DNA from: Thiotrichaceae bacterium
Lineage (GTDB): Bacteria > Pseudomonadota > Gammaproteobacteria > Thiotrichales > Thiotrichaceae
NCBI GenBank assembly: GCA_026991755.1
Contig: JALXAX010000064.1
Location: 19,384-51,383 of the forward strand
DNA length: 32,000 nucleotides
Direction of reading: 5' to 3'
Shown: one piece after another, positions 4,971 through 31,180 of the stretch
How positions within the stretch are numbered: position 1 is the stretch's first letter
Layout of the letters: the number at the start of each line of letters is the position of its first letter
Translations under genes and position numbers: made by a program
Notes under the pieces: model-generated
Database searches by the model: none
Seen by the model: the letters and a program-made list of their open reading frames with translations, nothing else
What the model was told of the DNA's origin: nothing

Positions 4971-5504
4971 ATGTCTAAAGTAGCTAGAAAACCGATTGAT
5001 TTACCTTCTGGACTGGAATGTACAGTTGATGGTCAATCAATTAAATTAAAAGGCGCTAAAGGCTCTTTTGATTATGTAATTCATGATTTGGTAGAAATCG
5101 GACAAGATGATAACGCTTTAACGTTTAAAGCTAAAAATGATGATCGTCTTGGTTGGGCAATGGCAGGTACAATGCGTGCATTGACAGCAAATATGGTAAC
5201 GGGTGTTACTGAAGGTTTCGAAAAGAAGCTTGAACTTGTTGGTGTGGGTTACAGAGCTAAAGCACAAGGTTCAAAGTTAAACTTAACATTAGGTTTTTCA
5301 CATCCTGTAGATCATGAAATGCCAGAAGGTATTACTGTTGAGACTCCGAGTCAGACAGAAATCATCCTTAAAGGTATTGATAAGCAACAAGTAGGCCAAG
5401 TTGCCGCTGAAATTAGAGCTTATCGCCCACCAGAGCCTTACAAAGGTAAAGGTGTTCGATATGCTGGTGAGCATATAATCCGTAAAGAAGCCAAGAAGAA
5501 GTAG
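4971..5504 (+). CDS. rplF: 50S ribosomal protein L6
   Basis: [13 protein letters not shown]...VGVGYRA...LGFSHPV...[11 protein letters not shown] matches L6. Confidence 0.97.
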
Positions 5505-20404: not shown

Positions 20405-21448
20405 ATGATGATAGCGAAGCTAAAAACAAAACAATCAATTTCTACTCTTAGTACCCTAGTTATACTAAGTACACTTTCATTTCCTCTATCAGCGCACCAA
20501 CATGATAAGCATAAAGCAGGAATAGCCTCTCAAGAGGATGAAAAGGTAATTGCTCCTTTTGATATTGTGCATACAAAAATAACAACAGAAGGTAATGTGG
20601 CCACATTCCATATGGCTGTATCGGGTAAATCGGGGGAGAATAAGCCGACTGCAACGGGTAAATTGGCGGGAAGTAACGTTTTTTCTTATGTCTGGCCAAC
20701 TACTCTGGATAGCTACGATGTAGGTTTTGAGAAAAAAGCAGGAATATTAGCACTAGTACTCCAGCAACTTAGGTTTGATGGATACAGAGCAATCCAAAGC
20801 GCTCAAGACAAGGCATGGGTTGCAGGCAATGGTTGTTCCCTTGGCAAGACCCATAACGCAGTATTGAGCGCTTTGGGTTGCTCCCTTCGGGCGAGCCAGG
20901 AAGCGGTCATCCGCGTTGTTGCGCCTTTTGTGAAGGGAACAACCATTCCCTGCAAGACGCGCCTAGCGGCTAACCGCTTCCTGACTCGCTGTATTCATCA
21001 AACCTAACTTGTTGGAGTACTAGCAGTAACTGCACACCCTGATTTTGATGACACACCGTTGTTCGATGAAAATGGTGATAACAATACAGATAACGATGGT
21101 AATGTATGGCATAGCCATTGGGTAGTTTTACAGCCTAACAAGAGATGTGGCAAAGATGCTTTAGGCGTGGTCGATATTCCAAAAGGTAGTAAACCAAGAT
21201 TACCCAAAACATGGCCAGGCTTGCCAATTCTTCTGGATAGCCCAGGCTGGAATCCCACATTTGCTAAAGATACCGTTGAAGTGCGAGTTCCTTTTGAGAA
21301 TATTGGAGCCGTTAAATCAATGAGTTTTGATGGCGTTACAGCAGGTTTACGCGTTAATCAGAGTGTACATGCTCCATTGCTATGCGTTGTTAACGTGATG
21401 GATATAGCTTCGGGTGATCTGAGCTTGTCAGGTAAAGTGGATCAATAA
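20405..21448 (+). pseudogene. secreted protein of unknown function, interrupted in frame by a 263-bp inverted-repeat element
   Basis: N-terminal signal peptide (KLKTKQSISTLSTLVILSTLSFPLSA). ORFs 20405..21007 and 21059..21448 share one frame. Removing 267 nt restores ...AGILALAVTAHPDFDDTPLFDENGD... as a 258-aa ORF. Confidence 0.75.
20757..21019. mobile_element. 263-bp non-autonomous TIR element (MITE-like), CTAG-flanked
   Basis: 31-nt terminal inverted repeats match 28/31 (TACTCCAGCAACTTAGGTTTGATGGATACAG vs rc TACTCCAACAAGTTAGGTTTGATGAATACAG). CTAG on both sides (20753-56, 21020-23). No transposase ORF. Core is about 57% GC by hand count. Confidence 0.75.
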
Positions 21449-21544: not shown

Positions 21545-21702
21545 GAGGCTGTCTTAGAACTAGAAGCGTAGCGAAAAACACAAGAGCATCATAAGCTGCG
21601 TATATTGAATGAGGCGAATAGTTGTTCTATTTAACGATTTCAATATGCCCAGCTTATGATGTTCATGGGATTTGCAGTAATTTCTTAGTTCTAAGACAGC
21701 TT
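21545..21702. mobile_element. 158-bp palindromic element flanked by CTAG (MITE-like), abutting the dnr stop codon
   Basis: Ends GAGGCTGTCTTAGAACTA / rc GAAGCTGTCTTAGAACTA. Internal arms pair again at CATCATAAGCTGCGTATATTGAA / TTCAATATGCCCAGCTTATGATG. CTAG at 21541-44 and 21703-06. Confidence 0.6.
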
Positions 21703-30357: not shown

Positions 30358-30927
30358 ATGAACAGACGTATCAAAATGATTGTGTTAGCTATGTTTACAG
30401 GCGCTTTATTGGTGGCAGTAGTGCTTTCTTTTATTGCTCTTGGGGCGATGCATCTAGTTCCTTGGTTATTATTGGCATCGTTATTTTTGATTCCCTTTTT
30501 GCTGAATAGAAGTGAGCAACACCACTTTGTTGTATGGAAGGATGAATACAGTGTAGGTGTTGAATCTCTTGACGATGATCACAAGAAGCTACTTAATTTG
30601 ATCAATAATTTACAGTTGGCAGTGCATTATCAAACGGGAGAAAATTTCGAAAAAGAAGCATTAACCGATGTGGTTGCCTATACCAAGTATCATTTTGAAC
30701 GAGAGGAGAAAATGATGCAGGAAGCTTCATATGCTGATTTTGATGCTCATAAAGCAGTGCATACTGCGATGATTGCCAAGGTGAATAAATTCTTGCTGGA
30801 ATATGAAAAACAGGGGCATGATGCGTTAGAGGAGTTGGCGCAGTATCTCAAAGATTGGCTGGTTGGACATATCAACGGCACAGATCAGGAATACAGCTCA
30901 TTGTTGCGTGAGAAAGGTATTAATTAG
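30358..30927 (+). CDS. membrane-anchored bacteriohemerythrin-domain protein
   Basis: Two N-terminal TM helices (IVLAMFTGALLVAVVLSFIALGA, LVPWLLLASLFLIPFLL). Then W.DEYSVGVESLDDDHKKL...YTKYHFEREEKMM...H..VH...WLVGHINGTDQEY, the hemerythrin His/Glu/Asp ligand pattern. ATG 30358 has AGGAG 6 nt upstream (the track uses TTG 30352). Confidence 0.88.
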   Translation: MNRRIKMIVLAMFTGALLVAVVLSFIALGAMHLVPWLLLASLFLIPFLLNRSEQHHFVVWKDEYSVGVESLDDDHKKLLNLINNLQLAVHYQTGENFEKEALTDVVAYTKYHFEREEKMMQEASYADFDAHKAVHTAMIAKVNKFLLEYEKQGHDALEELAQYLKDWLVGHINGTDQEYSSLLREKGIN

Positions 30928-31090
30928 AAGATTTATATGTAACTACTCAGCTTACCCTCTACTTTGTCCAATAGCTGCGTTGAAAGTGCTCATTTATACC
31001 TATAAACTGCGCGCTTTCGCCTTACTCTTGAACAAAGTAGAGGTCAATCTGAGCAGTTACGGATTACGCTGAGTAGTTACATTTATATTT
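30928..31090. repeat. about 160-bp palindromic element downstream of the hemerythrin gene
   Basis: ATGTAACTACTCAGC / GCTGAGTAGTTACAT (15/15) and CCTCTACTTTGT / ACAAAGTAGAGG (12/12). The right arm carries an extra 20 nt that includes a second GTAACTGCTCAG copy. Confidence 0.65.
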
Positions 31091-31180
31091 TCAAAGTTTA
31101 AACAAATAGACTTGCAGGTTAGATAAGCTATATAGGCACATGGATGTACCGTAGTAGGCAAAGTAGTTAATTCTAAGCTT

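Follow-up and report, generated by a model that had tools for sequence, protein, structure and literature searches.

This locus raises two questions: what has split a gene of a Thiotrichaceae bacterium (Gammaproteobacteria; Thiotrichales), and why the inserted DNA contains three long interleaved helices. The stretch analysed, hereafter the window, comprises 32,000 nucleotides of contig JALXAX010000064.1 (NCBI GenBank assembly GCA_026991755.1, positions 19,384 to 51,383 of the forward strand), and the insertion lies at 20756-21020. An earlier note on this DNA had paired three sets of segments in the core of the insertion, in the order A-X-A'-Y-X'-Y', and had proposed that they form a structured RNA or a DNA switch. 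The reading favoured here, to which we assign a probability of roughly 0.7, is that the insertion is a MITE (miniature inverted-repeat transposable element) mobilised in trans, whose twin hairpin modules would be kept as cis-acting folded single strands that aid its propagation. Positions are those of the window, and loci or contigs from elsewhere are cited by their L numbers.

Removal of 267 bp (265 bp of element plus one TA) fuses the open reading frame (ORF) fragments 20405-21007 and 21059-21448 into a single frame of 258 aa; in its present state the host ORF terminates at a stop within the element (21005-21007). The restored ORF has 5,545 homologues, the top match being 99% identical over 100% of its length and encoded by a Thiothrix sp. 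metagenome-assembled genome (MAG). Contigs with the intact gene (L136/L137) are syntenic to the window and share with it the gene order ParB, FemAB-like, DUF938, MarR, host gene, Crp-like, cytochrome c and COX1. The empty site, found in L136/L138, contains a single CTAG (its sequence is quoted as TTAGCACTAGCAGTAAC, GCACTAGCAG and GGAATATTAGCACTAGCAGTAACTGC), and aligned to it the filled site of the window reads ...GCAC-TA-[GTACTCC...GGAGTAC]-TA-GCAG..., so that the two differ by exactly the element and one TA. Since a 99%-identical relative carries an uninterrupted gene with one CTAG, TA was duplicated on insertion. The insertion is a recent one: the element entered a CTAG within a gene of a gammaproteobacterium resembling Thiothrix, and the central TA of that target was duplicated. 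The public assembly of the same locus stops within the element, as assemblies do at repeats. The features of the insertion are as follows.

20405..21448, plus strand: host gene for a conserved hypothetical secreted protein of ~247-258 aa, split by the insertion.
20754..20755, no strand: left TA of the target-site duplication, within the CTAG target (empty-site alignment; ORF restoration).
20756..21020, no strand: the MITE proper, 265 bp (repeats, ORF restoration, empty-site alignment).
20756..20787, plus strand: left terminal inverted repeat (TIR), GTACTCCAGCAACTTAGGTTTGATGGATACAG (repeat search; the same TIR type flanks siblings in L141, L142 and L143).
20989..21020, minus strand: right TIR (repeat search).
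21021..21022, no strand: right copy of the TA target-site duplication (empty-site alignment; ORF restoration).

The two TIRs (20756-20787 and 20989-21020) are 32 nt long and pair with 1 mismatch and 2 G:T. A longer inverted repeat, 20753-20787 with 20989-21023, pairs at 34 of 35 positions counting 2 G-U; it also takes in the palindromic target, and the true TIR is the 32-nt one. All ORFs of the element are at most 50 aa long, and no Pfam match was found for the ORF translations tested, which covered five ORFs overlapping the core. The earlier note had allowed that the core might be a fragment of the coding region of an insertion sequence (IS); this did not materialise, as no tested ORF matched Pfam and ISs of the partner type, described below, are devoid of the module. 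Folded as a single strand, the element has a minimum free energy of -158.7 kcal/mol against -83.6 +/- 5.0 for shuffled sequences (z = -14.9 on the plus strand and -14.7 on the minus strand), and the predicted fold consists of the TIR stem and hairpins A and Y, with X absent from it. Three siblings with the TIR type of the window were found in other metagenomes (L141, L142, L143). The element is a non-autonomous DNA transposon of the MITE type: it is short (265 bp) and non-coding, has TIRs, shows a target-site duplication in the comparison of empty and filled sites, and exists in dispersed copies, and among the properties looked for only a partner IS of its own TIR class was not found in the plasmids and metagenomes searched. 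We are highly confident of this identity and of the anatomy with twin inverted hairpin modules. A sequence scan found no promoter-like or terminator-like site inside the element. Two candidates seen by eye, a sigma-54-like TGG-N10-GC in Pseudomonas-type modules and a sigma-70-like TTGNCA-N15-17-TATAAA in AT-rich modules, are not kept across the family and were discarded.

The pairings reported in the earlier note were reproduced on recount. Segment A (20788-20806 with 20864-20882) forms 18 Watson-Crick pairs and 1 G-U over its 19 positions, X (20820-20842 with 20933-20955) forms 22/23 pairs, and Y (20891-20907 with 20973-20989) forms 16/17; a repeat search recovers slightly longer arms, of 23 nt for A, 24 nt for Y and 37 nt for X, the last at 81%. 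The core GC content, estimated there at ~57% in AT-richer surroundings, is 56.9% against 41.6% for the window, and the tetraloop-type hairpin it mentioned is present as CCCTTCGGG, starting at 20883. Its view that the core is unlike a plain MITE hairpin is also borne out, the core being two inverted, covarying copies of one module of ~100 nt joined by a CCCnnnGGG hairpin, with A and Y as their P1 stems. X (20820-20842) is the apical part of the left module and X' (20933-20955) is the complement of the apical part of the right one.

20787..20883, plus strand: left hairpin module (covariance model 20778-20900, 97.6 bits, E 2e-25).
20787-20809 with 20861-20883, plus strand: P1 of the left module (helix A).
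20809-20814 and 20855-20864, plus strand: internal loop of the left module, CAAGGC on the 5' side and AACGCAGTAT on the 3' side.
20815-20820 with 20849-20854, plus strand: P2 of the left module.
20828-20832 with 20838-20842, plus strand: P3 of the left module, closing the pentaloop TTGTT at 20833-20837.
20883..20891, no strand: central mini-hairpin CCCTTCGGG, common to the 3' ends of both modules.
20891..20989, minus strand: right hairpin module (covariance model 20874-20998, 63.8 bits, E 6e-16).
20891-20914 with 20966-20989, minus strand: P1 of the right module (helix Y).

The general plan of the module is a basal stem P1, a conserved internal loop (CAAGGC/AACGCNG) with AGGCAAGGC on its 5' side and AACGCNGYAT on its 3' side, a P2 of 6-7 bp, a P3 of 5 bp and a T-N-N-T-T pentaloop. 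Both apical helices occur in several sequence versions. P2 is ATGGGT/ACCCAT in the window, GCGGGAC/GTCCCGY in Pseudomonas, ATTGATT/AATCAAT in Pseudoalteromonas and GCAAAAC/GTTTTGC in Halomonas, and P3 occurs as AATGG/CCCTT, TTTGG/CCAAA, ATAG/CTAT and GTGTGG/CCACAT. The central CCC...GGG hairpin is kept throughout the family, with a variable loop.

Relatives were sought with the pattern CMAGRC-N16-RGTNNTTC-N16-AACGCNGYAT in a species-representative genome collection, in which at least 120 loci match, from dozens of proteobacterial genera. Together with plasmid searches, and using a covariance model, the genome scan gave at least 220 module matches in at least ~130 loci, mostly of Gammaproteobacteria, with a few from other Proteobacteria. 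Paired modules, lying on opposite strands and overlapping at the central CCCnnnGGG hairpin, occur in at least 78 distinct elements, and element length is tightly set (~264-276 bp across the family and its TIR classes). Elements built in this way were recovered by BLAST searches of plasmids from Pseudoalteromonas, Pseudomonas, Azotobacter, Halomonas, Photobacterium and Catenovulum; these copies have other TIRs and stem sequences and the same loop sequences. Hosts among the listed matches include Alteromonadales, Vibrionales, Pseudomonadales, Halomonas/Salinicola, Chromatiales and Thiotrichales, as well as Nevskiales, Salinisphaerales, Deefgea, Nitrosomonas and one zetaproteobacterial MAG. No match was found in 5,426 E. 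coli genomes or in a phage collection. Two viral contigs of IMG/VR match the module pattern (L139 5287-5342 and L140 1087-1142) and may represent host DNA flanking prophages. Neither a description nor a printed sequence of the family was found in the literature searched, with subscription journals and ISfinder outside its scope.

Comparison across this family supports the predicted helices. An alignment of 66 non-redundant left halves (MAFFT) shows one long hairpin, with the register of P2 and of the central hairpin taken from RNAalifold on that alignment. Double, compensatory changes occur in 27 of its 31 predicted pairs, the stems are ~94% paired across the family, and the covariation score is 0.622 against 0.184 for shuffled alignments and 0.11-0.28 for slid partners. 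P1 is paired at 95-98% and P3 at 93%. A further 89 distinct secondary modules, which the search pattern had not selected, show 85-100% pairing for most of the pairs and 4-6 pair types at each position, and also keep the motifs C-AGGC, TGGT..TTC and AACGC-G. A structure-blind MAFFT alignment of 55 whole elements likewise shows double changes in 19/19 pairs of A and 16/17 pairs of Y. P1, P2 and P3 of each module are thereby supported by compensatory substitutions, as judged from aligned sequences.

The result for X is of another kind. Given two inverted modules, a base in the left loop pairs with a base in the right loop exactly where both paralogues carry the same base. The 22/23 pairing of the window is exceptional: the median of the 78 two-module elements is 14/23, and only 4/78 reach at least 20/23. 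Column by column, pairing in X is near 1 where the sequence is invariant and falls to 0.3-0.45 where a column covaries inside its own module, and most elements have unlike P3 helices in their two modules. In the 55-element MAFFT alignment the X columns that pair well are invariant, and those that vary are mostly unpaired. In L141 and L143, siblings that share the TIR type, X carries substitutions that are not compensated and pairs at 19/23 by manual reading. The loops with X and X' are taken up by P2 and P3, and if X is forced to form in the window copy the fold is worse than the twin hairpins by 14.1 kcal/mol (RNA parameters) or 11.2 kcal/mol (DNA parameters). Helix X is the sequence identity of two paralogous copies, without covariation, and is not a conserved helix. 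Of the three helices that the earlier note proposed to test for covariation, A and Y show compensatory changes across a large family and X does not.

These observations bear directly on the possibility that A, X and Y work together, the core being a single structured RNA or DNA switch, either a double pseudoknot (kissing) structure or a pair of alternative states, A plus Y versus X, and perhaps a ribozyme or intron. Such a device would account for the near-perfect X of the window, where the apical pentaloops are exact complements on one strand (TTGTT/AACAA), and it draws further support from rare apical variants that occur in both modules of an element (TGGTG in L068, a GGCCWTAGTCC tip in L142) and from a variable pentaloop column that pairs in 46/55 elements (columns 95/208). 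Gene conversion between inverted repeats explains the shared rare variants and the pairable pentaloop column equally well, however, and the switch is at odds with the low median of X, the unlike P3 helices of most elements, the restriction of X pairing to invariant columns, the uncompensated changes in siblings and the energetic cost of X. In Rfam 15, to which the earlier note had looked for comparison, no family matches the window at gathering threshold, ribozymes and introns included, and only chance-level microRNA matches appear at E up to 10. The proposed 23-bp loop-loop contact is contradicted by the lack of covariation in X, and the conserved two-state switch falls away with it, Y and X' being simply the reverse complement of the second module copy. 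What stands of the structured RNA or DNA switch is a conserved, covarying single-strand structure; its interleaving is an inverted duplication. As a whole we regard this explanation as very improbable.

Whether the modules act as single strands or as double-stranded DNA can be judged from the mispairs tolerated in their helices. Counted in model-fitted alignments, with each module read on its own strand, G:T outnumbers A:C among the model pairs by 190 to 41 in the primary modules and by 156 to 29 in the secondary ones, i.e. ~5:1 on the strand that reads inward from each end. A manual tally of pair types from MAFFT alignments goes in the same direction (G:T > A:C). Because G:T on one strand is A:C on the other, a symmetric cruciform cannot give rise to the excess, which therefore indicates selection on each module to fold on the strand running 5' to 3' inward from its own TIR. 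That strand is the first to be copied by an incoming transcript; it is also the displaced non-template strand, and the lagging-strand template for a replication fork entering there. Each module is thus predicted to fold as a single strand, and RNA and single-stranded DNA fit the sequence data alike.

The same asymmetry weighs against a double-stranded DNA device, in which the core would extrude under supercoiling into a four-way junction or cruciform, made up of the TIR stem, both module hairpins and the mini-hairpin, that joins the ends of a stiff 265-bp element for transposase synapsis or binds a host protein with a preference for junctions or bends, like HU or IHF. Its attractions are the symmetric architecture, the narrow length range across TIR classes, the independence of the core from the transposase family, and a run of three consecutive A-T pairs in the middle of P1 (alignment columns 23-25) that is conserved even in hosts of 65% GC. 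It nevertheless predicts no excess of G:T, while ~5:1 is seen in both modules, and it leaves the conserved unpaired loops unexplained; an IHF consensus was considered by eye, and none is conserved across the family. A MITE that shares an IS630-like TIR and has no module (see below) also speaks against it. We consider this explanation improbable.

How the element is mobilised can be approached through its ends. The TIRs of the family fall into many classes, of which two match autonomous elements. The class TAGGGTCTGTTGACGTTTTGGCGTGAG matches the ends (cTAGGGGCTGTTGACGTTTTGCCGCGAG) of an 862-bp IS on an Aeromonas plasmid (L131), whose transposase has DUF4096 and DDE_Tnp_1 domains (IS5 family), and the class TATACCCGTGATACTTGAAGATGCAGGATTCAGC matches an end (TATACCCATTCAACTTGAAGATGCAGGATTGAGC) of a decayed IS on a Photobacterium plasmid (L134) that retains remnants of HTH_33 and DDE_3 (IS630 family). 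The module is absent from both ISs, so that the core is not IS-derived sequence. Between the IS5-like and IS630-like classes core identity does not exceed 72%, and the associations are therefore old. A test for a recent swap of TIRs between these two classes gave no support for one: an apparent 97% core match proved to be a misclassified flank, the true maximum being no more than 72%. Members of a TACCAAG class (L029, L035, L059, L097, L118 and others) are flanked by 3-bp TNA duplications (TTA, TAA, TGA) in place of TA, which suggests that this core is also mobilised by a transposase of a third kind.

Several further observations concern the distribution of these ends. TIR matches of a similar IS630-like kind occur in plasmids of Cronobacter, Pantoea, Enterobacter and Yersinia. 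At L127 2951-2993 two IS5-like TIRs stand back to back (TAGAGTCTGTTGATCTTT and AAAGATCAACAGACCCTA) with almost nothing between them, and have the look of an "empty" minimal element. Long TIR-to-TIR spans in L028, L033, L035 and L048 are best read as separate neighbouring copies. TIR copies lying apart from modules in ~1 Mb of retrieved loci have RecR, YbaB, Rnf and similar ORFs nearby, and no transposases. A primer table (PMC12457610) lists Legionella pneumophila primers by lpg2920-21 that contain TTTAGGGTCTGTTGAC, and an IS5-like end of the same class probably lies there; this primer is the sole sequence match in the literature and does not describe the family.

A possible course of events can be drawn from these findings. 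A TA-duplicating DDE transposase would move the element in trans, and the module would act in cis, as a folded single strand that favours the spread of the element. The folded strand could be a transcript that runs in from one flank or the other; it could also be the displaced strand of DNA or the template of the lagging strand. The inverted pair would guarantee one sense copy whichever way the element lands. This role of the module, propagation as a folded single strand, is put forward tentatively, at somewhat less than even odds. The module is probably kept by selection on the propagation of the element itself and not by a host-level function of each insertion, because the core spans transposase families and an old copy decays like its flanks. 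That copy, present between hisS and ispG in two Pseudoalteromonas strains, forms the one orthologous pair available; its divergence about equals that of the flanks, its right P1 has a 12-bp deletion, and its AACGC motif carries a change. Relative to neighbouring ORFs, the better-conserved module has no orientation preference, either upstream (51/48) or downstream (48/44).

The same facts can be read as the absence of any function, with complementarity kept passively by intramolecular gene conversion or hairpin-templated repair in a selfish repeat. The decay of old copies, the lack of an orientation bias relative to genes and of a promoter or terminator signal inside the element would all follow, and derived variants common to both modules of an element fit conversion. 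Passive repair does not explain why the unpaired motifs CAAGGC, TGGT..TTC and AACGCNG are near-invariant, in the 89 secondary modules as well, nor why they persist in classes that have neither stem nor TIR sequence in common; the strand-specific G:T excess and the unlike P3 helices within elements are left over too. An element without function is, in our estimate, hardly more than a one-in-ten proposition.

Transposition as single-stranded DNA offers a different account of the strand-specific signature. REPINs are doublets of repetitive extragenic palindromic (REP) sequences that form hairpins and are mobilised by RAYT. Like the present element, they have two inverted palindromic units with a short spacer, a strand of which forms either two local hairpins or one fold-back, and it is this ambiguity of inverted units that gave rise to the A-X-A'-Y-X'-Y' pattern in the earlier note. 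They differ in having no TIRs and no target duplication, in the size of their units (~25 nt against ~100 nt) and in their HUH tyrosine transposase, whereas the element has a TA duplication and IS630/IS5-type TIRs. An element of the REPIN or IS200/IS605 type, with its inverted palindromic units moved as single-stranded DNA by an HUH enzyme (RAYT/TnpA) and its TIRs incidental, would fit the twin inverted hairpins with their short spacer, the strand-specific signature and the nested two-hairpin mini-elements described below. Against it stand the clean TA duplication beside 32-nt TIRs, the match of TIR classes to DDE-type IS630/IS5 ends, and the absence of an HUH gene among the ten window ORFs and the few locus ORFs scanned; to our knowledge, HUH elements neither duplicate their target nor possess TIRs. 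An IS200/IS605-derived PATE, which would have subterminal hairpins of one and the same strand at its two ends, is excluded by modules that are sense on opposite strands and by the presence of TIRs and a target-site duplication. This is the least probable of the explanations considered, and we give it almost no weight.

The reading of a trans-mobilised MITE with cis-acting folded modules must in turn be set against the evidence that weighs on it. The assignment to each IS family rests on one autonomous example, and no autonomous partner for the TIR class of the window (GTACTCCAGCAAC... ends) was found in plasmids or in two metagenome scans, the first of which was empty and the second of which gave only three further MITE copies. 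A Klebsiella pneumoniae plasmid (NZ_CP036439.1; L135 2000-2100) carries a MITE of ~100 bp with IS630-like TATACTCAAGAAACTTCAAGATGCAGGA ends and no module, so the module is not needed for the chemistry of transposition. The loop motifs are fixed in the pattern used to find the primary modules, so that part of the invariance of these modules is built in by the search, a bias that the secondary modules and the plasmid copies found by BLAST reduce and do not remove. The G:T and A:C counts lean slightly to G:U through the model-fitted alignments, and the lack of host-level constraint is deduced from a single orthologous pair.

Other bacterial MITEs that form hairpins and duplicate TA include ERIC/IRU, YPAL/RU-2 and the Neisseria Correia/NEMIS elements, with plant Stowaway as a eukaryotic analogue. 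The bacterial elements (ERIC, YPAL and Correia) resemble the present one in being small and non-coding, with TIRs, a TA duplication, many dispersed copies and strong predicted single-strand folding, in inserting between and occasionally within genes, and probably in being moved by a DDE transposase acting in trans. The present element has no sequence similarity to them (no match in the E. coli genomes above) and differs in its two inverted modules with conserved internal loops and three covarying helices in place of one fold-back, in a core common to TIR classes of two unrelated IS families, and in a length fixed at ~265-270 bp over a very wide host range. A conserved, covarying structure on a mobile element is likewise known from RNAs in Rfam (IS605-orfB motifs, HEARO/omega RNA and group I/II introns); unlike these, the element is without an Rfam match and without an adjacent protein gene, and its module is an inverted pair between TIRs.

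The interiors of MITEs are usually seen as drifting filler between transposase sites. Here the interior is the conserved part, its loops and helices having been kept across dozens of genera while the TIRs were exchanged between unrelated IS families. It is conceivable, though we would wager against it, that the module is an undescribed functional single-stranded motif on MITEs, recognised by some factor conserved in Proteobacteria, for example an RNase, an RNA chaperone or a protein of the replisome or of repair. By the same doubtful line of thought, the inverted pair might keep one sense copy in the transcribed or exposed strand and so enable the module's repeated pairing with unrelated transposon ends; the ends so joined would be, if this unlikely-seeming scheme is right, IS630-type TA, IS5-type TA and the 3-bp TNA class. 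Were the module functional, non-autonomous elements may carry a cis-acting "fitness" structure that does not depend on the transposase, or else a structured RNA or single-stranded DNA motif of wide distribution may have been overlooked, repeat-derived candidates being filtered from screens for non-coding RNA. The covariance model separates the family cleanly and can be used to annotate repeats that break assemblies and disrupt genes.

Some smaller elements were noted along the way. Several family members harbour a nested mini-element of ~45-50 bp, which has TGCTCCTGC and CCTACATCCATGTAGG as its two small hairpins; it is present at L035 ~5330-5390, L110 ~680-947, and L115 ~345-375 and ~2165-2200, and also in L012, L022, L056, L074, L089, L109 and L112. 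It immediately follows the P3 pentaloop T(T/C)ATT in three independent elements, in one orientation and with no visible duplication, a placement reminiscent of single-strand insertion of the IS200/IS605 type.

The window holds a second MITE of ~155 bp (21548-21700), between the disrupted gene and the Crp-like gene, with IS5-like ends; it reads cTAG|GAGGCTGTCTTAGAAC...GTTCTAAGACAGCTTC|TAGa. It is predicted to form a single long hairpin (-79.8 kcal/mol, z -9.5), the tip of which, GAATAG-TTGTT-CTATT, equals P3 and the pentaloop of the module. The CAAGGC/AACGC loop is absent, and the match to the covariance model is weak (17.8 bits, E 0.005). This insertion is probably the older, because L136, the relative with the empty site, has a spacer of equal length. 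Further downstream, nested inverted repeats at 30924-31095 (36-nt and 31-nt arms) suggest another small palindromic element.

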